From sequence record PZ495249.1: 64,000 nt of DNA. The stretch is one strand, 5' to 3'. The DNA comes from a phage. A program made the position numbers and the translations under genes. The notes under the pieces are model-generated. The model was given only the letters and a program-made list of their open reading frames with translations. It searched no databases and was not told the DNA's origin. Positions 1 through 38,250 of the stretch are shown one piece after another; the stretch's first letter is position 1, and every line of letters starts with the position of its first letter.

Positions 1-910
1 CGTAGGAGTCAGCAACGTAAGAGCAGAAACCTTTAGGAACCACTTTGGTAATAAAGTGCAGCAGGAATTCTTTCTCTGCAAGATAACGGAGGCCATCAAC
101 ATCACCTGCGAGGTGAGGGAAATGCTCTTCGAGATCTTTTACGATACGACTGATGTTTGTAGTTGCCACAGAGTGCTCAGACGCAGGGATACTACCAGCA
201 ACGAAATCATCTTCATCAATACCGTAGTATTCGTAAACCGCGTCGATTGCCAGAATGTTATCTGTACCAGTGAACGCTGCCAGGTGAGCGATACCGCTCT
301 TATAGCCGTCTTCAATACAAGATAAACCGCGCAAACTGAAATCGTGACACTGGAAATTAACGTGATCCACATTGTCACAAGTTGCCAGTGCATATGACAT
401 TGCCACACGCTTGTACTGGAACGCAGCAGTTGCGTTGGTGATCGCTTTCCAGCTTTCGGTTGACATTACGGTTTCAACGTAGTTAGTCACCCAGAAGAAT
501 TTCTCAATCGTATTGTGAATGGTATAAACCGGAACACCAATCGGAGACAGAATACCTTCTGGCAGAGCACGAATTTCCAGAGGCAGGTAGCCTAAATCGT
601 GCAGTTCACCCCAACATTCAGCGCTTGGCGCAGATTCACCGAGTGATTTTTTAGCCATGCGATCAAAACGCTTAACGGCTGCTTCTCGCTTCATCTTGAA
701 GAATTTCTTCCACATGCCTACCATTGAGTCCATCACCATACGGCGGAAGCCGATGACGATAACACCGCGAGCATTTTTATCTGCGTAATGCGCAAAGTTC
801 TTGTCATTACGTGGAGTCAGGTTAGAGAAGATCAGTTTAGTGTTTGGATTGTACATTGGCTTGTGACCAGGTTTGTACCAATCGGCAGCAGACGGTGCAT
901 AAATTTCCAT
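1..910 (-). CDS. nadV: nicotinamide phosphoribosyltransferase (NAMPT/NadV), N-terminal ~303 aa; 3' end lies beyond window start
   Basis: Manual minus-strand translation from ATG at 910-908 gives MEIYAPSAADWYKPGHKPMYNPN... and LPLEIRALPEGILSPIG, HDFSLRGLS, GSIPASEHS, matching NAMPT signature regions; not in ORF track because truncated. Confidence 0.85.
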   Translation of the reverse strand, partial: MEIYAPSAADWYKPGHKPMYNPNTKLIFSNLTPRNDKNFAHYADKNARGVIVIGFRRMVMDSMVGMWKKFFKMKREAAVKRFDRMAKKSLGESAPSAECWGELHDLGYLPLEIRALPEGILSPIGVPVYTIHNTIEKFFWVTNYVETVMSTESWKAITNATAAFQYKRVAMSYALATCDNVDHVNFQCHDFSLRGLSCIEDGYKSGIAHLAAFTGTDNILAIDAVYEYYGIDEDDFVAGSIPASEHSVATTNISRIVKDLEEHFPHLAGDVDGLRYLAEKEFLLHFITKVVPKGFCSYVADSY

Positions 911-979
911 TTGTTTCTCCTTTCTCTTGTTTGTTTCGATGAGGAGAAGATTAAGTTATCCTCTCCACAAAGTCAACAC

Positions 980-1879
980 TTATTTGTAATTTTTACGAAG
1001 ATTGCCGTTCAGAATGAAATTCTGGAGCGCTTGTTGGTTTAACACCAGTTTACCTGTCTCGTCAACATTATTCTCCCACACATTGAAAGAATGGATGCAA
1101 TCAAAGTGCTCATTTAGTTCTTTCATACCCTTAGAGAAGATACCGTGGGTAACGAACAGTTCAATCTTACCAGCGTTACGTTCACGCAATACTTTGGCAA
1201 GCTCAATGAAAGTACGACCACCATCGCAGATATCATCCACGATCATCAAATTCTTACCGCAGAAGTCCTCGACGTTGATGTTGGTCTTGACAATATCTCC
1301 GGTCTTCGTATCACGGATTTTCTCTGCACAGTGTACAATGAGTTGCATTGGTTTAGCCAGTTTGAAGATTTTCTTCAAGGCTCCACCGTCTGGACTAACC
1401 AGATCAAACTCTTCCATACGGAGTTTCCAGTTAATCGCGAACATTGCAATCTCTTCTTGTGGGATAACAAACAAGTTATGGATTACAGCCGGAGTTACAT
1501 CACTGTGCGGATCAGCAACAGTCACACGGTCAAAGTTAAGGTTGTTAAGTGCTTCTGCAAACGCACCGATACCATTGGCTTCACCTGGTTCACACACTCG
1601 GTCTTGTCGAGCATATGGCACATAGAGCATAACAAGCTCTGTTGTGTGAGGGATGAATTTAAGAATGTTATCAATTGCATTCTTAGTCATCAGCAACACC
1701 ATGAAGTCATTACCTGATCTTACTTCGTGATGGATAATCACACGAGAACCTGGTTCAGTTAATGCAATCATCGTGTCTGCATCAACACGTACATGTTCTT
1801 CTCCGCCAGAGAAGGTGAATGTTTTGATTGGTACAGGATAAACTTCACTGTTGTGTGGGTGCATGATATCAATCTTCAT
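980..1879 (-). CDS. prs: ribose-phosphate pyrophosphokinase (PRPP synthetase)
   Basis: Track ORF 980..1915; start moved to ATG at 1879 (MKIDIM...) just after upstream stop; VSPDGGA and MIVDDICDGGRT PRPP-binding motifs. Confidence 0.8.
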   Translation of the reverse strand: MKIDIMHPHNSEVYPVPIKTFTFSGGEEHVRVDADTMIALTEPGSRVIIHHEVRSGNDFMVLLMTKNAIDNILKFIPHTTELVMLYVPYARQDRVCEPGEANGIGAFAEALNNLNFDRVTVADPHSDVTPAVIHNLFVIPQEEIAMFAINWKLRMEEFDLVSPDGGALKKIFKLAKPMQLIVHCAEKIRDTKTGDIVKTNINVEDFCGKNLMIVDDICDGGRTFIELAKVLRERNAGKIELFVTHGIFSKGMKELNEHFDCIHSFNVWENNVDETGKLVLNQQALQNFILNGNLRKNYK

Positions 1880-2081
1880 TGTCTTCCTCCTCTTCTTCAA
1901 TTTCTTCAATTTCACTTAAACGATCAAGAATTGTCTGAGCCTGGTCCCAGAGAGCATCATAGGCTCTACGCTCACGAGGAGATAGCTGTGAAGGTCTGAA
2001 ATCATCTTGGTACATCTTATCAATAATATCTTGCATATCGTTCGATGTATTCTCGAACATACAATAACTCATGTTTGACAT
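1869..2081 (-). CDS. hypothetical acidic protein (C-terminal EIEEIEEEEEDNED)
   Basis: Track ORF; RBS AAGGAGAAAGAT upstream of ATG; first gene of minus-strand unit. Confidence 0.5.
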   Translation of the reverse strand: MSNMSYCMFENTSNDMQDIIDKMYQDDFRPSQLSPRERRAYDALWDQAQTILDRLSEIEEIEEEEEDNED

Positions 2082-2111
2082 ATCTTTCTCCTTGGTTAGT
2101 TGATGGACAGG

Positions 2112-2140
2112 AGTATAGATATGTAAGATCAGTAAGTCAA
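2112..2140 (-). promoter_or_regulatory. sigma70-like promoter for the acidic-protein/prs/nadV unit
   Basis: Minus strand reads TTGACT-17nt-TATACT about 30 nt upstream of the 2081 start. Confidence 0.45.
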
Positions 2141-2355
2141 CTACTTTCTTAGTATGAATTAATTAAGGAATAGATTGACTCAGGTATGTTAGATCTGATA
2201 CATTGACAGACATGAAAGATATCTATACAGACAACTCTACTGTCTAAGAGATCTAAGTGAAACAGAATGAGAGAATCTCCCCTCGCTTCGCTCGGCAAAC
2301 TTCGTGTTTAGGGTAGCATGTTTCAAAACAAAAGTCAATACCTCAAAGGAGAAAA

Positions 2356-2496
2356 ATGAAAATTAATTTAGAACAAGTAAAAGACCTCACACCTAAGTAT
2401 AAGAGAGGCGGTGCATCACGCCGTAGAACGCTGCGTGAGGGCATTGACAAGCCACGGTTAGTGGTTTATCATCCAGAGAAAGAAAACGGCTCATAA
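2356..2496 (+). CDS. small basic hypothetical protein (46 aa)
   Basis: Not in track (<60 aa); AAGGAGAAAA RBS then ATG; MKINLEQVKDLTPKYKRGGASRRRTLREG... Confidence 0.35.
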   Translation: MKINLEQVKDLTPKYKRGGASRRRTLREGIDKPRLVVYHPEKENGS

Positions 2497-2514
2497 CGCG
2501 ATACAGGAGGTCTG

Positions 2515-2817
2515 ATGGACTTTACGCACACAACTTTGATGGGAGAGCTTCACGGATTCTACAATGGTGAAGTTTTCTGTGCTGCTTACCACGACGATGA
2601 TATGTCAGTGGAATGGGAGCAACTTGAATTTATCTCGGAGAAAGCCAGTGTGATGGTTGACTTCGACCACATCGAGTGGTACATTGGCAACTCTGTTAAG
2701 GTGGTAGGTTTGGATCGTAACCAGATCATTGATCTTGATTGCAAATTAATCAACTTCCAATTTGGGAATAAGATTCCCTTGGAGCGACAATTACAACTCG
2801 TTTGTGAGGAGGAGTGA
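2515..2817 (+). CDS. hypothetical protein
   Basis: Track ORF, start/stop-coupled with downstream gene. Confidence 0.5.
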   Translation: MDFTHTTLMGELHGFYNGEVFCAAYHDDDMSVEWEQLEFISEKASVMVDFDHIEWYIGNSVKVVGLDRNQIIDLDCKLINFQFGNKIPLERQLQLVCEEE

Positions 2818-3041
2818 TGAGTAAATATCAAAAAGGTATCTGGTATCCTTGGGGAGAAAGCGGGGATAAGCGTAATGGTTTCCCGCCTGTCCCGCTTGGT
2901 ACAAAAGTAACTGTTCGTCATCGTGACGGTGACGTGATTCCTGATCAGTTTGTAGGGTATGGTGCTGCCGAAACATGGGTAGTAATCAATGACCGTTACT
3001 GGGACGGTGATATCATGGCTTTTATGGTTGAGGAGGAATGA
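2814..3041 (+). CDS. hypothetical protein
   Basis: Track ORF, ATGA overlap with neighbours. Confidence 0.5.
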   Translation: MMSKYQKGIWYPWGESGDKRNGFPPVPLGTKVTVRHRDGDVIPDQFVGYGAAETWVVINDRYWDGDIMAFMVEEE

Positions 3042-3253
3042 TGGAGACTATCTACCGTGTAACCCTGGGTGGTATTCATGATGTTAAATCGACGTACAAC
3101 TACGCAGAGGCGAAGGAACACTTCCTTATGTGGGTTCAAGAGGAGATTATGGATGAAAAGGTGGCTTATAAAAGTGTGACGCTAACTGCCGATCATGAGC
3201 CAATCCTGGAGTATATTCGTCAACCCTACCCAGAGGAGTTTGACAATGAGTAA
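3038..3253 (+). CDS. hypothetical protein
   Basis: Track ORF, ATGA coupling. Confidence 0.5.
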   Translation: MMETIYRVTLGGIHDVKSTYNYAEAKEHFLMWVQEEIMDEKVAYKSVTLTADHEPILEYIRQPYPEEFDNE

Positions 3254-3485: not shown

Positions 3486-3777
3486 GCGTACAACGCCAGC
3501 TAAATCGCAAACTGCACCGAAACCTAAGTTTGACACGGAGGCATTTGTCTTTGACACACCGATTGAGAAGATTGAAGAGGCGCTCCAACGCCTTGAAGAG
3601 CAGGAGGCAGATCCTATGGCTGAACCTCTCACGCAGGATCAACTCTACTGGTGGGGATGGTGGACATTGCACATGCCTGATGCAAAAAGACGTGGCATGA
3701 CTACGGTTCCGATTTGTGCGAAAGAGTCTGCGGTGTTGGGGCTTTACGAGAAACCGAAAGGGAGGAAGAAGAAATGA
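3439..3777 (+). CDS. hypothetical lysine-rich basic protein, possible nucleic-acid binding
   Basis: Track ORF; GTG start 6 nt after GGAGG; N-terminal KTPKKQSARKPATKRTTPAK. Confidence 0.4.
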   Translation: MAKTPKKQSARKPATKRTTPAKSQTAPKPKFDTEAFVFDTPIEKIEEALQRLEEQEADPMAEPLTQDQLYWWGWWTLHMPDAKRRGMTTVPICAKESAVLGLYEKPKGRKKK

Positions 3778-7514: not shown

Positions 7515-8243
7515 ATGATCGAAGGATTTTTCAAGGACATTAAAGTAGACAAGCAGTTTTTCATCGACGCAGCAAAGCATATCGTTGAGTGGAATGCGAA
7601 AGCTCGTGGTGGAGAAACTCCAGAGTTTACCCAAGAGATGTTCATTTCTCAGATCGGATTTGTCCGTGAAGAACTGAAAGAGTTCCAAGATGCAGCACAA
7701 CTTAACGATCATGTCGAAATGCTTGACGCAGCGGCTGATGTGTTTGTTGTGGCATCCTATCTGGCATTTATGTTCTGGGGAGAAGAGCGAGTTAATCTCA
7801 TGCTGTCTCAGAATGTAGGCGATGTTTTCCCGTCAAACATCTATGATGAGTTCAATCAGATCGATGCAACGTTCACTGAGGCTGCTCAGATGGCTATCAT
7901 GACTCTCGGTATTACCCGTATGGCTCGCGACACTCTGGTGAGATCTGTGTATAACGAGAAGAAAGTGGTGAAAGAAGTGCTGAAAAGCAATGACTCTAAG
8001 TATCCAACACGTAGACAAATTCTTGCAGTGTGGGAAACAAAGGACATTGATTTCGCACTGGAGCAAGAATGTGCAGCAATTGAAGATCGTAACAAAGACC
8101 GTCCAGAAGGTGCATATACCGGAGTTCATGCTGTCTATAATGAAAAGCAGAAGGTGTATGTATTCTTTGATGACAAAGGTAAAATTATGAAACCTTCCAC
8201 CTTCGTTAAACCTGATATTGGGGCTATCGTTGGAAAATCCTAA
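7515..8243 (+). CDS. hypothetical protein, possible MazG-like nucleotide pyrophosphohydrolase domain
   Basis: Track ORF; REELKEFQDA...EMLDAAADVF resembles MazG helices; weak. Confidence 0.4.
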   Translation: MIEGFFKDIKVDKQFFIDAAKHIVEWNAKARGGETPEFTQEMFISQIGFVREELKEFQDAAQLNDHVEMLDAAADVFVVASYLAFMFWGEERVNLMLSQNVGDVFPSNIYDEFNQIDATFTEAAQMAIMTLGITRMARDTLVRSVYNEKKVVKEVLKSNDSKYPTRRQILAVWETKDIDFALEQECAAIEDRNKDRPEGAYTGVHAVYNEKQKVYVFFDDKGKIMKPSTFVKPDIGAIVGKS

Positions 8244-20538: not shown

Positions 20539-21534
20539 ATGCGATACCTGGTGACAGGTGGGCTTGGATTTATTGGGAGCGCGGTAGTGCGCTCTCTGCA
20601 TAAAAACCCACTTAACGAAATCTATGTTGTTGACAAATGGGGCTATGCCTCCGATCCACGTAATCTTACACTCACCCCAGATGTAAGATTCTGTAAGTTA
20701 GACTTGACAGACCTCGTGTTAACTGTTAAGATGCTGGCTGACATTAATCCAGATTACATTATCCACTTGGCGGCTGAAAGCCATGTTGACAATTCAATCT
20801 CTGCTCCAAAAGCATTCATTGAGTCAAATGTAATCGGTACGTTCAATCTGCTTGAAGCAGTGCGGTACATGGGTAACAGATCAAAGCTCAAGAAGTTCCT
20901 ACATGTCTCCACAGACGAAGTGTACGGCGATTTGAGCGTAGAAGATGTTCCGTTTACCGAAGACACACCTTATGCCCCAAGTAGCCCGTACAGCGCGTCT
21001 AAGGCAGCGAGTGACCATCTGGTACAAGCTTGGCATCGTACCTACGGAATTCCAACCGTAATTACCAATTGCTCGAACAACTTTGGTGCATATCAGCATC
21101 CAGAAAAGTTGATTCCCCGTGTAATTACGAGTATCATGATCGGTAAACAGATTCCTGTCTATGGGAACGGTTTACAAGTAAGGGATTGGTTGTTTGTCGA
21201 TGACCATGTAGATGCCTTGCTTCTGGCACTCACCGAAGGTAAGGTGGGAGAAACATATAATATCGGTAGTCGCAACCCTCGTACCAATATGGAAGTAATT
21301 TATATGATCTGTGATTATATGGATGCTGTCCATGCAGACAAGGGTTTCTATCCTGCATCAAATCTTATTAAATTCGTTAGTGATCGCCCTGGTCATGACA
21401 CTCGTTATGAGATTGATCCTACGAAGTTGGAGACAGAGTTAGGATGGGCTACTGAGGGTACATTCGAAGAGAAACTTTATCAAACCATTGAGTGGTATAT
21501 TGCTCACGACTTATGGTGGCAGAATAAAGTTTAA
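20539..21534 (+). CDS. rmlB: dTDP-glucose 4,6-dehydratase
   Basis: Track ORF; [33 protein letters not shown]; close to enterobacterial RmlB. Confidence 0.9.
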
Positions 21535-21542
21535 GGAGGAGC

Positions 21543-22469
21543 ATGAAAGGTATTATCCTTGCGGGTGGCAGTGGCACTCGTTTGTATCCGGTGACTAAAG
21601 GGGTAAGCAAGCAATTGCTCCCCATTTACGATAAACCGATGATCTACTATCCACTATCTGTATTAATGCTGGCAGGGATAAACGATATCTTAATTATCAC
21701 AACACCCGAAGATCAGCGTAATTTCCAACAGCTTCTTGATGACGGAGAAGACTTAGGAATCAGCATCACCTATGCAACTCAGGATCAACCAAGAGGGTTG
21801 GCAGAAGCCTTTATTATCGGTGAAGATTTCATTGGTGATGATTCTGTAGCCCTTGTCCTCGGAGATAATTTATTCTTTGGACAAAGTTTCGGTACTCTCT
21901 TACATTGTGCAAAAGAGCATGTGGAATTCTATGGCGGAGCCGGAGTATTTGGTTATCGAGTGAACGATCCTGAACGATTCGGTGTTGTAGAGTTCGATGA
22001 CTCAGGTAAGGTTGTGAGTATTGAAGAGAAACCTGTTAATCCTCGCAGCAATTATGCAGTTACTGGACTTTATTTCTACGACAATTCTGTGATTCAGAAA
22101 GCCAAAGAAGTGCAACCTTCTGCTCGTGGTGAATTGGAGATTACAGACATTAACGAAATGTACCTTAAAGAACGTGCGCTCCAAGTGTGGAAACTGGGAA
22201 GAGGTTTCACTTGGCTTGACACAGGTACACATGCAAGTTTAATGGAGGCATCTCAGTTTGTGCATACAATTGAGAAACAGCAAGGAATGAAACTCGCTTG
22301 CCTTGAAGAAATTGCATTTATGAATGGGTGGATTACAGCAGAGCAACTTATTCTGACAGGAACTGCCCTGGCTAAAACAGAATATGGACAATATCTGCTT
22401 TCATTAGGAGGGGTTAGATGGAAAGCACAATTAACGTCAGAGAAACCAGCATTGAAGGTCTTGTCGTAA
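21543..22469 (+). CDS. rmlA: glucose-1-phosphate thymidylyltransferase
   Basis: Track ORF; [16 protein letters not shown]...[17 protein letters not shown]. Confidence 0.9.
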
Positions 22470-22987
22470 TAACACCGAGGGTGTTCGGTGATGACCGAGG
22501 ATTTTTCCTTGAGTCTTTCAACCAAGCCCGATATGATAACCTTATTGGTGAACACACGTTTGTTCAAGATAACCACTCCCGTTCTACGAAAGGAGTCCTC
22601 CGTGGACTCCACTACCAAGAAACAAATCCCCAGGGGAAATTAGTGAGATGCACAAGCGGCATGGTATTTGATGTGGCTGTGGACTTACGTGAAGGTAGTC
22701 CGACCTTCGGAGAATGGGAAGGTGTTGTACTTAGTGAACAAAACAAAACGCAATTCTGGATTCCACCAGGATTCGCTCATGGCTTTGTCGTTATCTCAGA
22801 CGTAGCCGATTTCGAATACAAATGCACTGAATATTACGATCCAACCTCGGAACGCAGTTTACTCTGGAATGATCCTGATGTAGCTGTCGATTGGGGATTT
22901 GACTTAATCTTTGGTGATGAAAATTATCAGCCTATTCTATCTCAGAAAGATCGAGAGGCCAAAACCCTACGGGAGATTTTTGGATGA
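22418..22987 (+). CDS. rmlC: dTDP-4-dehydrorhamnose 3,5-epimerase
   Basis: Track ORF; cupin RmlC-like sequence; overlaps rmlA 3' end by 52 nt. Confidence 0.85.
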
Positions 22988-23820
22988 AACGATATTTAGT
23001 ATTGGGTGGTAATGGTCAATTAGGCCAAGCACTCAATAAAGTGAAGCCGGAAGATGTAGATTTAATTTATCCTGAACGTTGTGATATTACCGATTTCAAA
23101 CAGGTGAAGGATCTAATCGTACAAACTATGCCGGAAGCAGTTATCAACTGCGCAGCATATACAGCCGTCGATAAAGCCGAAGAGGATATGCAGACTGCAA
23201 TTAGTGTTAATGCATACGGTGCTGCAAATATTGCGAAAATCTGTGGTGAACTTTACATTGACTTAATTCACATTTCGACGGATTATGTCTTTGATGGTTC
23301 ATTCCCTGGTATTGAGGGTGCTGAAACAAATCCGTTAAATGTCTACGGTTACTCCAAGCGTTTCGGTGAAGAATTAGTTCACGCGGTTCATCCTGGGGCA
23401 TTAATTATCCGTACAGCTTCTGTGTATAGCGAATTCGGTAACAACTTCCTGAAAACTATGTTAAGCCGCTACAACGGCGGTCAACGTGAGTTTGATGTTG
23501 TCTGCGATCATTACTCCTGTCCAACATATGCTCCAGATCTTGCTGAAATGATTTTCACAATGTTGGAATATGGTGTTGGTGGTCGTATTCTTCATTACGC
23601 AGGTAAAGAATATTTAAGCTGGTATGACTTTGCGACACGTATCTTCTGGGAAATAGATATGACGGTTAAAGTAAACCCAGTATCTGCTGCTCAGTATAAC
23701 TCCAAGGCAGTACGACCTGCCAAATCCTATCTTGAAACCAAAGGGTTCCTGACTCCAAAACCAGTAGCCCACGGTATTAACGAATCACTGAAAGTTCTAT
23801 TAAATAAGGAGAGAGAATGA
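22984..23820 (+). CDS. rmlD: dTDP-4-dehydrorhamnose reductase
   Basis: Track ORF; GGNGQLG, STDYVFDG, YGYSK. Confidence 0.85.
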   Translation: MKRYLVLGGNGQLGQALNKVKPEDVDLIYPERCDITDFKQVKDLIVQTMPEAVINCAAYTAVDKAEEDMQTAISVNAYGAANIAKICGELYIDLIHISTDYVFDGSFPGIEGAETNPLNVYGYSKRFGEELVHAVHPGALIIRTASVYSEFGNNFLKTMLSRYNGGQREFDVVCDHYSCPTYAPDLAEMIFTMLEYGVGGRILHYAGKEYLSWYDFATRIFWEIDMTVKVNPVSAAQYNSKAVRPAKSYLETKGFLTPKPVAHGINESLKVLLNKERE

Positions 23821-36889: not shown

Positions 36890-37450
36890 ATGGGATTTGA
36901 TGACATGTTGGACTATGAGGGAAACTGCGTTAAAGAAGCTCTGGCCTTACCAGAACTGGAGATCACCATCACAGTGTATGACACTTATTCCGATTGTGAA
37001 ACTTGCGGTGCATACTGGAGCAGAGTTCTTGAAGTAGATGGAGACTTAGGGGAATTCCAGAGTGGTGATCGTGCAAGTTGTTTGGGTAGTAATGATGACG
37101 GTACTTATCACGAAGTTGCTCAATGGATTAACGCGCGACTTGAAGAGCATGGTCGTCCTGTTCCTGTACTATTGACACCGGATGCAATGCTGCAAGCTGA
37201 TAACGAGTATTACGCTCAAGCGGCTTTGGTGAACTATGATTATAATCATCCTTCGCTTGAGGCATTAGGACATAAAGCAGGTTGTCTGTCAGATGCTTTT
37301 GATGCATACTATACGTTAGACAGTCTGAAACGATTGTATTCTGCATTCGGTGTGACCATTTATGATGATCACAAGGCAGATGAGGTTTACGATGCCAGCG
37401 ATTGGGGCGATTATGAAGATAATGAGGAAGAAGAATGCCAAGACGACTGA
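36890..37450 (+). CDS. hypothetical acidic protein
   Basis: Track ORF 36863..37450 trimmed to ATG at 36890 after GGAGGA. Confidence 0.5.
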   Translation: MGFDDMLDYEGNCVKEALALPELEITITVYDTYSDCETCGAYWSRVLEVDGDLGEFQSGDRASCLGSNDDGTYHEVAQWINARLEEHGRPVPVLLTPDAMLQADNEYYAQAALVNYDYNHPSLEALGHKAGCLSDAFDAYYTLDSLKRLYSAFGVTIYDDHKADEVYDASDWGDYEDNEEEECQDD

Positions 37451-38250
37451 TTGTAATTTCTGGTGCAGGACTTAGCGCCGATAGTGGTGTACGTACATTC
37501 CGTACCGACACCGAAAGTGGAAAAGCACTTTGGGACGAATACGATCTTGCAGAGGTTTGTGATATTGGAGCATTCCAAGCTGGCTATCGTCGCCGTACAT
37601 CACCAGATGTTCCGGTTGTTGGTGGTATCGACGATGAAGGGATGGATCTGTACGAGAAGACAAACAACTTCTACAACAAACGCCGTGTGGAACTTGCAAC
37701 TGTAGAGCCTAACGCTGCACACCTTCAAATCGCTAAGTGGTTTGCAATGGCTCCTGAGCGTGTCTACAACATCACGACTAACGTTGATGACCTGTTGGAA
37801 CGTGCTGGCGTTGCTCGTGAATCTGTACTTCACGTCCACGGCTACTTACCAGAAATCCGTTATCGCTTAGAACCTGGTTCACAGGAACAACTTGTGGATG
37901 TAGGGTACGCTCATGTCGATATTGACGCATTCCATTGGACAAAACCTAACGTTGTGTTCTTTGGTGAGGCTGCACCACTCTATAATGACATGTACGCACT
38001 GTTCGACACGCTAACATCTCAGGATATGGTGATTGTGGTTGGCTGCTCTAACCAAGTGATCAACTTCAACTGGGAACTCTTCCCGATGCTTAACATCGGA
38101 ACTAAGATGGTTGTGGTGAACCCTGGGGTTAACTACCTGGAGACAGAAATGTATCAAGAACGGGGCGTGTTTGTTTATCGCGCCGGAGCCGCAGAAGCGT
38201 TCAGCAATGAGCACTTCATTAAGATGGTAGAGGATCACCTGAATGGTTAG
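37435..38250 (+). CDS. SIR2-family (sirtuin/CobB-like) NAD+-dependent protein lacking the Zn-ribbon cysteines
   Basis: Track ORF; GAGLSADSGVRTFR, PNAAHLQIAKW, TTNVDDLLERAG, HVHGY, VVFFGE align with CobB (recalled); no CxxC pairs. Confidence 0.75.
   Translation: MPRRLIVISGAGLSADSGVRTFRTDTESGKALWDEYDLAEVCDIGAFQAGYRRRTSPDVPVVGGIDDEGMDLYEKTNNFYNKRRVELATVEPNAAHLQIAKWFAMAPERVYNITTNVDDLLERAGVARESVLHVHGYLPEIRYRLEPGSQEQLVDVGYAHVDIDAFHWTKPNVVFFGEAAPLYNDMYALFDTLTSQDMVIVVGCSNQVINFNWELFPMLNIGTKMVVVNPGVNYLETEMYQERGVFVYRAGAAEAFSNEHFIKMVEDHLNG

Follow-up and report, generated by a model that had tools for sequence, protein, structure and literature searches.

A predicted NAD+ reconstitution pathway 1 operon in a Stephanstirmvirinae-like phage

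The first 2140 positions of a 64,000-nucleotide stretch of phage DNA (sequence record PZ495249.1; the entire stretch is called the window below) carry on their minus strand three co-oriented genes in the order orf70-adps-namat. We estimate with a probability of roughly nine in ten that this module is a NARP1 operon (NAD+ reconstitution pathway 1; NAD+, nicotinamide adenine dinucleotide) of a Stephanstirmvirinae-like myovirus. The evidence comprises homology, the conservation of residues for catalysis and specificity, the layout of the operon and its synteny with NARP1 loci already catalogued; residue signatures, score controls and this synteny are the basis for its placement within the NARP1 clade. 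An earlier note on this DNA had correctly located homologs of nicotinamide phosphoribosyltransferase (Nampt) and phosphoribosyl pyrophosphate (PRPP) synthetase (Prs) head-to-tail on the minus strand (910..1 and 1879..980, respectively), and had labelled the pair a NadV and PRPP synthetase salvage module. This label has to be replaced, as the residue signatures and the comparison with verified enzymes place the two proteins in the Namat and Adps families. The link that the note drew to NAD+-depleting defences holds up, in that the module matches NARP1, for homologs of which a counter-defence role is known.

The Adps and Namat homologs

The Prs-like protein (299 aa from the ATG at 1879; gene at 1879..980, minus strand, with the open reading frame (ORF) extendable to a GTG at 1915 in the ORF listing) displays PRPS-like two-domain homology, with matches to the NCBIfam model TIGR01251 (E = 7e-30) and to solved Prs structures (E = 1.5e-12). 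It is also recovered by phrog_619 (E = 9e-84) and by the Pfam models Pribosyl_synth (E = 5e-9) and Pribosyltran (E = 1e-7), and it matches the first ~220 positions of phrog_12872, a profile of length 547 that is annotated as NAMPT. A PDB sequence search with this protein returned canonical Prs only, with no Adps chain among the matches. The earlier note had held that sequence alone does not distinguish a PRPP synthetase from a synthetase of ADP-ribose (ADPR) pyrophosphate (ADPR-PP); this view is outdated because structure-derived signatures and verified enzymes have now been published, and these, together with score controls, separate the two. The residue-level criteria for Adps come from the 2026 structural paper on the ICP1 enzyme, which was solved with ADPR/ATP and with ADPR-PP/AMP (PMC13586617).

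We aligned the window protein with the verified Adps proteins of Bas63, ICP1 and FADO, the homolog from Klebsiella phage KP2025 and E. coli Prs; in this alignment its identity is 39% to ICP1, 33% to Bas63, 28% to FADO and 20% to E. coli Prs. The ICP1 enzyme was verified by structures and LC-MS, and that of Bas63 by ADPR-PP formed in vivo. The window protein scores 154 bits against ICP1 Adps in tblastn, and 50.6 bits against the best solved Prs in the PDB sequence search. The TIGR01251 model, with a cut-off of 113 bits, gives 104 bits for the window protein, 98 for ICP1, 96.5 for FADO, 107 for the KP2025 homolog and 138.5 for Bas63, as against 423 for E. coli Prs. With the equivalog Prs models of NCBIfam the window protein scores 41-95 bits versus cut-offs of 296-536; the E. 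coli Prs control ranges from 423 to 533 over the Prs models, TIGR01251 included. Thus, the window protein reaches no curated Prs cut-off, and none of the phage proteins comes near any of the equivalog cut-offs.

Examination of individual positions in the alignment reveals that F18, R87, H121, D161, K185, D212 and D213 of ICP1 Adps are conserved as F23, R91, H125, D164, K187, D215 and D216, with K187 being the counterpart of the catalytic β-hairpin lysine (ICP1 K185). The diphosphate loop, C218-D-G-G-R-T223-F224, is exactly that of Bas63 Adps; the same loop reads C-D-G-A-A-S-F in ICP1 and I-D-T-G-G-T-L in E. coli Prs. Furthermore, a gap of 17 columns, seen in the alignment only, lies opposite part of the E. 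coli Prs segment SLPNVRTLTLSGMLAEAI (α11-α12, the filament and regulatory module of PRPS), and this C-terminal Prs segment is deleted in all five aligned phage proteins. The gene neighborhood is of a piece with these features: namat lies immediately downstream of adps on the same strand, and 97% of the genes of the Adps clade have a Namat neighbor (bioRxiv 10.1101/2024.02.11.579819). Together these observations suggest that the Prs homolog behaves like an Adps, with the predicted reaction ADPR + ATP -> ADPR-PP + AMP.

The Nampt-like gene (910..1, minus strand) runs off the left edge of the window, which holds the N-terminal 303 of its 565 codons. The encoded fragment is recognized by phrog_448 (E = 5.7e-94) and by the NCBIfam model PRK09198 (E = 1e-63), and scores 194 bits against PDB 9W5X versus 116 bits against human NAMPT; 9W5X is, like 9W5W, a structure of SPbetaL1 Namat (PMC12774641). 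The leftward extension for the C-terminus that the earlier note had called for is supplied by a contig of 4064 nt (L011), found by exact-protein look-up of the window Adps. The first 2405 nt of this contig are 99.875% identical to window positions 2405..1, with 3 mismatches, and it holds an intact Namat ORF of 565 aa; the full-length protein scores 387 bits against 9W5X and 179 bits against human NAMPT. The second-best structural relative of Namat is PDB 9KE8.

The core of SPbetaL1 Namat consists of D13, Y15, F189, R192, D215, A242, the catalytic histidine, R306 and D308 (PMC12774641). Within the window D10, Y12, F191, R194, D217, A243 and H246 constitute the core, and the L011 sequence adds R330 and D332, equivalent to SPbetaL1 R306 and D308, along with G420-D421. 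A clamp helix motif in Namat, GSXphiXphiXphiTRD, enforces ADPR-PP selectivity (PMC12774641); it is present in the intact ORF as GSFTYQFNTRD at residues 450-460, and KP2025 has the same sequence. Human Nampt reads GGGLLQKLTRD at this position, and its residues there are those that were introduced by the authors to destroy the use of ADPR-PP (PMC12774641). In the window protein the variable clamp loop exceeds that of SPbetaL1 Namat by 4-6 residues, and there are two insertions relative to SPbetaL1 Namat, as in Bas63 Namat. On these sequence features the Nampt homolog behaves like a Namat, for which the predicted reaction is ADPR-PP + nicotinamide -> NAD+ + pyrophosphate.

The operon would probably be transcribed early by host RNA polymerase from a promoter at 2140..2112. 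What the enzymes do, and their effect on host defences, is predicted from published homologs. Adps would attach the β,γ-diphosphate of ATP to free ADP-ribose at its 1'' hydroxyl, yielding ADPR-PP and AMP, and Namat would swap the pyrophosphate of ADPR-PP for nicotinamide to give NAD+ directly. In this way NAD+ could be rebuilt from ADPR and nicotinamide, the products of SIR2-, TIR- and SEFIR-type defence NADases, and the phage might then replicate in hosts with SIR2-HerA, DSR2 or type I Thoeris. The corresponding 'prs-nampt' pair of Bas63 does not perform classical salvage: its Prs-like enzyme pyrophosphorylates ADP-ribose and its Nampt-like enzyme makes NAD+ from ADPR-PP and nicotinamide (bioRxiv 10.1101/2024.02.11.579819).

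To place the module among the known pathway types we scanned 129 further window ORFs, together with the 89-aa ORF downstream of namat in L011, against Pfam. In this set there was no Macro domain, which argues against NARP1-AP; no NMN (nicotinamide mononucleotide) adenylyltransferase (NMNAT) or Nudix domain, which argues against NARP2; and no NadR or PnuC, which argues against NARP3. ADP-ribosylglycohydrolase and RyR domains were likewise absent from the scanned ORFs. Such genes could lie in the remaining half of the genome. If the NARP1 assignment is correct, the phage should overcome defences that release ADPR and nicotinamide, such as SIR2-HerA, DSR2 and Thoeris. Since the window showed no Macro phosphatase, it should remain sensitive to aRES-type defences, whose product is ADPR-1''-phosphate. 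These expectations could help to assess host range should therapy with such phages of Klebsiella-like hosts be considered.

The homologs from KP13-26, phi92, ECGD1 and muut are already listed in Supplementary Tables 1 and 2 (Tables S1 and S2) of the work that described the Bas63 pair, as Prs/Adps with a Namat neighbor and as 'Adps-associated' Namat (bioRxiv 10.1101/2024.02.11.579819). Given that these closest relatives are tabulated as NARP1, the module would be a further member of a described family, and the main value of the present analysis lies in annotation, with nothing new on mechanism. Public records name the pair ribose-phosphate pyrophosphokinase and nicotinamide phosphoribosyltransferase. 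In the KP2025 record (PP919962; L002 7196-8089) the Adps homolog is annotated as 'baseplate wedge protein', and in other relatives the pair is labelled 'hypothetical'; we regard these labels as errors in the public annotation of the family.

Weighing of alternative readings

Several points weigh against the NARP1 assignment. The clamp helix of Namat lies outside the window and is known from the near-identical L011 and from relatives. The variable clamp loop of Namat is expected to have arginine, lysine or tyrosine at its third position and a stacking residue either there or one position on (PMC12774641). In this loop, P-R-N-D-K37-N-F in the window, the expected lysine is followed by asparagine, with a phenylalanine one position later, while the residue after this lysine is tryptophan in Bas63 and tyrosine in FADO and ICP1; the auxiliary adenine stack of the loop is thus not assured. 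Namat enzymes can also still convert PRPP to NMN in vitro, roughly half as fast as human Nampt (PMC12774641), and some classical salvage flux might possibly run alongside the Namat activity. In Adps, the adenine-contact residues F92 and F223 of ICP1 are not conserved, being C96 and E226 in the window protein; they are M102 and E230 in Bas63 and a gap and G209 in FADO, and we do not regard them as family-defining because they vary among verified Adps proteins. Bas63 Adps, the owner of the identical diphosphate loop, could not be purified, so that only metabolites measured in vivo attest to its activity (bioRxiv 10.1101/2024.02.11.579819). Finally, the window covers 64 kb of a genome of roughly 145-150 kb.

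The window also encodes a SIR2/sirtuin homolog of 271 aa (37435..38250, plus strand), which has the GAGLSADSGVRTFR motif and matches Pfam SIR2 with E = 4.3e-21. Its gene lies outside the operon, as the last one in the plus-strand block, and the protein shares 93% identity with 'cobB' of KP13-26 and 52% with the Sir2-like protein of T5. It belongs to a widespread clade of sirtuins from proteobacterial phages that has been predicted to act in NAD+-dependent RNA repair, with cREC, MazG-like, calcineurin-like and ligase genes as predicted partners (Iyer et al. 2022, PMC9503650). Domains of such partner kinds, namely cREC, Metallophos and PRA-PH (MazG-like, 7515-8240), are encoded on the plus strand of the window and are not adjacent to SIR2. 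The earlier note had considered the co-occurrence of SIR2 with the NAD+ module worth examining; the gene is indeed present, and as a lead it is weak, with a distance of 35 kb, homologs in 978 phage records (T5, rV5-like, phi92-like and KVP40-like phages among them) and a clade with a predicted role in RNA repair. We found no evidence for a functional coupling of SIR2 and NARP1.

In one alternative, which we consider very unlikely, a true PRPP synthetase and NadV would produce NMN, and host NadR/PncC or a phage adenylyltransferase would complete NAD+. The database names and the Pfam and NCBIfam homologies do point to Prs and to NAPRTase/Nampt, the NMN synthesis by Namat in vitro noted above would fit (PMC12774641), and more than half of the genome lies beyond the window, where an NMNAT could exist. 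However, the window protein misses every curated Prs cut-off, where E. coli Prs attains 423 bits, the threonine of the ribose-5-phosphate loop of Prs (DTGGT) is replaced in a loop that equals that of Bas63 Adps, and the partner protein has the adenine-clamp motif of Namat. Moreover, SPbetaL1 Adps gave no product in a control reaction offered in place of ADPR and ATP, the counter-defence activity of Bas63 is independent of host pncC and nadR, and phage Nampt proteins of the NARP2 type, which have no Adps neighbor, form a separate clade (all in bioRxiv 10.1101/2024.02.11.579819); nor does the window hold an NMNAT domain. That the operon is instead a decayed or inactive remnant without function is scarcely credible: the Nampt-like ORF does break off, but only at the window edge, the 99.875% identical L011 having the intact 565-aa ORF, and every catalytic residue is conserved, the ribosome-binding sites are good and synteny is kept in relatives at 64-90% protein identity.

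Somewhat less improbable, though still unlikely, is that the same chemistry serves another purpose, namely the recycling of nicotinamide and ADPR derivatives generated by the phage's own SIR2, so that NAD+ is kept available during infection, as opposed to a role against host defence. The presence of a SIR2 homolog in the same genome agrees with this idea, and homologous sirtuins are also found in T5-like and KVP40-like phages, groups in which other NAD+-restoring pathways have been described (NARP3 in Bas30, a T5-like phage, and NARP2 in KVP40). The cREC, calcineurin-like phosphoesterase and MazG-like genes of the window, as predicted sirtuin partners (PMC9503650), point in the same direction. 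Against this, SIR2 and NARP1 are 35 kb apart on opposite strands, and the predicted sirtuin products are ADPR-cyclic-phosphate or O-acyl-ADPR rather than free ADPR. ADPR-1''-phosphate is no substrate for NARP1 without a Macro phosphatase (bioRxiv 10.64898/2026.01.28.702374), and none was found in the window. Furthermore, deletion of NARP1 from Bas63 and FADO has phenotypes only on defence-carrying hosts (bioRxiv 10.1101/2024.02.11.579819), which favors a counter-defence NARP1 operon over a recycling device.

The three-gene locus and its source phage

The first gene of the operon, orf70 (2081..1869, minus strand), had been missed by the earlier note, which described a module of two genes. It encodes a protein of 70 aa whose C-terminal tail is acidic. 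The end of orf70 and the beginning of adps overlap by 11 nt, and a spacer of 69 nt separates the adps stop from the namat start on the same strand. Reading of the sequence reveals a Shine-Dalgarno element before each start, AAGGAG for orf70 (2093..2088, 6 nt upstream of the start), GAGGAGG for adps and AAGGAG for namat. With the first plus-strand gene at 2356 the arrangement is divergent, as the earlier note had stated. Two long plus-strand ORFs that run antisense to adps (1002-1625 and 1145-1717) were taken, with no search aimed at them, to be spurious and to arise merely from the coding sequence opposite.

The sigma-70-like promoter that the note had reported on the minus strand at 2140..2112 (-35 TTGACT at 2140..2135, a 17-nt spacer, and -10 TATACT at 2117..2112) matches the consensus at 10 of 12 positions, and sigma-70-like sites in the region show no excess over shuffled sequence. 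Taken by itself the match is not significant: when the AT-rich intergenic region (274 nt) was shuffled, an equal or better site arose in 15% of cases. In the aligned orf70 upstream regions of the window, KP2025 and the diverged metagenomic contigs L018 and L019 the site keeps its position, with an invariant -35 TTGAC, a constant spacing of 17 nt and -10 hexamers that read TATACT, TACACT, TACACT and TATAGT. Because the hexamers and their position are conserved while the surrounding sequence has diverged, we accept the site as the likely operon promoter despite its weak consensus statistics; with orf70 lying between it and adps, it would therefore drive a three-gene unit.

Between the divergent units there is also a block of ~45 nt at about 2277-2325 (minus strand ...ATGCTACCCTAAACACGAAGTTTGCCGAGCGAAGCGAGGGGAG...) that is near-invariant in four relatives with diverged flanks. 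On the minus strand there is a conserved TTGAC 17 nt upstream of TACCCT, followed in the window by a terminator-like hairpin (2284..2269). The block has no second copy in the window and no Rfam match, and an Rfam scan of positions 1-3000 gave only a chance snoRNA match (E = 0.88). The block may serve as a regulatory site or give rise to a small transcript.

At the other end, no terminator-like hairpin was found after namat in L011. Directly beyond the Namat stop L011 has further sigma-70-like sites on the operon strand, TTGACT-17-TAATAT at 3194-3222 and TTGACT-16-TATAAT (11/12) at 3743-3770. In view of these sites and of the missing hairpin, the leftward gene block runs on past NARP1. In KP2025 this block leads to small ORFs and a tRNA cluster.

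The orf70 protein belongs to phrog_26791 (E = 1.4e-32) and to a family with 27 members in a large protein collection and 26 phage records, across which an N-terminal motif, MxNMSYCMFENTS, is near-invariant. Searches of Pfam and NCBIfam gave nothing above threshold; a PspB match at 0.008 did not reach the cut-off and was discarded. An AlphaFold2 model predicts a two-helix hairpin (pLDDT, predicted local distance difference test, 88), for which Foldseek found no PDB match with E below 3. We also rejected orf70 as a Macro-domain protein, since it has no Macro match and is a predicted helical hairpin, and as a counterpart of Bas63_0078, there being no similarity between the two.

Contextual information on orf70 comes from two unrelated phage lineages, in both of which its family is linked by translational coupling to enzymes that handle ADP-ribose. 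Among Stephanstirmvirinae-like phages and contigs (KP2025, L011, L018 and L019) it is always directly upstream of adps and overlaps it, whereas in about 20 jumbo phages (Eneladusvirus-like and others; for example, L009 6001-6348 and L010 5992-6216) a 71-77% identical copy lies directly downstream of, and overlaps, an annotated ADP-ribosylglycohydrolase gene. These two independent associations with ADP-ribose enzymes are a hint that falls short of being convincing. Distant homologs (L012-L015 and L017) occur in ordinary early-gene clusters without NAD or ADPR genes, which weakens a general connection of orf70 with NAD/ADPR metabolism. That orf70 contributes to NARP1 as the third working part of a variant system is a doubtful proposal; in that case it might inhibit a host NADase or ADP-ribosyltransferase, or serve as a partner in the handling of free ADP-ribose.

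The records closest to the window are those of the Klebsiella phages KP2025, phi1_175008, KP13-26 and FKP3, followed by phi92-like Escherichia phages. Nucleotide identity to the closest Klebsiella phages is 83-86% over 62-75% of positions 1-2400 and 81-83% over 50-56% of positions 14000-38000; phi1_175008 is classified in Stephanstirmvirinae. By these comparisons the source phage is a new species-level relative among the Stephanstirmvirinae-like myoviruses of roughly 145-150 kb. Elsewhere on the plus strand, at about 20539-23817, there are strong Pfam matches to NTP_transferase, GDP_Man_Dehyd, Epimerase, dTDP_sugar_isom and RmlD_sub_bind, families of the dTDP-rhamnose pathway, which were placed only by matching ORF sizes to the annotations of relatives and which adjoin ribonucleotide reductase genes.

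Comparison with known NAD+ reconstitution systems

NARP2, with the Nampt and bifunctional NMNAT/Nudix proteins of KVP40, and bacterial Prs with NadV have homologous PRPS-like or Nampt-like folds and share NAD+ as the end product with the predicted pathway of the window. NARP2, however, lacks a Prs-like partner and depends on an NMN adenylyltransferase, whereas the window has Adps and no NMNAT match. A true Prs clears the NCBIfam cut-offs and carries a DTGGT loop; the window protein does neither. The NARP1-AP system of Vibrio phage Gary (Adps-Adpp-Namat) likewise consists of three genes with one being accessory, and this form overcomes aRES (bioRxiv 10.64898/2026.01.28.702374). Its accessory gene encodes a Macro-domain ADPR-1''-phosphatase and stands between the core genes, in contrast to the 70-aa predicted helical hairpin before adps in the window.

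Of the structurally characterized enzymes, ICP1 Adps (PMC13586617) has in common with the window protein the catalytic lysine, the acceptor Asp-Asp pair, the arginine, histidine and phenylalanine, a remodelled diphosphate loop and the loss of the C-terminal segment. It differs in F92 and F223, which are not kept here, and in its loop, CDGAAS as opposed to CDGGRT. Similarly, SPbetaL1 Namat (PDB 9W5X and 9W5W; PMC12774641) shares the catalytic core and the clamp helix motif with the window Namat but has a shorter clamp loop, and the loop of the window protein is without an aromatic residue right after the lysine.

The NARP1 system of Bas63 (JohannRWettstein, genes 79-80; Osterman et al. 2024, bioRxiv 10.1101/2024.02.11.579819) has the same adps-then-namat order and an Adps with the diphosphate loop ICDGGRTF, identical to that of the window protein. 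Its Namat is also of the long form (593 aa versus 565 aa here), with two insertions relative to SPbetaL1 that match those of the window Namat in position, and the clamp motif GSYTYQYMTRD where the window phage would have GSFTYQFNTRD. Identity is nevertheless low, 33% for Adps and 38% for Namat, and Bas63 is a Felixounavirus in contrast to the Stephanstirmvirinae-like source of the window. The gene upstream of adps, Bas63_0078, is unrelated to orf70, and the Bas63 operon lies within a same-strand block of nucleotide-metabolism genes, whereas that of the window is found at a divergent promoter.

The nearest parallels are in the relatives of the source phage, for which the phage collection has no species-level match. 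The Adps proteins of muut and ECGD1 are about 65% identical to that of the window, and the phi92-like phages have no match to orf70. In KP2025 the Namat N-terminus is 90% and Adps 64% identical to the window proteins; KP2025 (L002 6982-7185) and contig L018 (2822-3031) have an extra ORF of 67-69 aa between adps and namat that the window does not have. The Klebsiella phages closest to the window share with it the same orf70-adps-namat arrangement.

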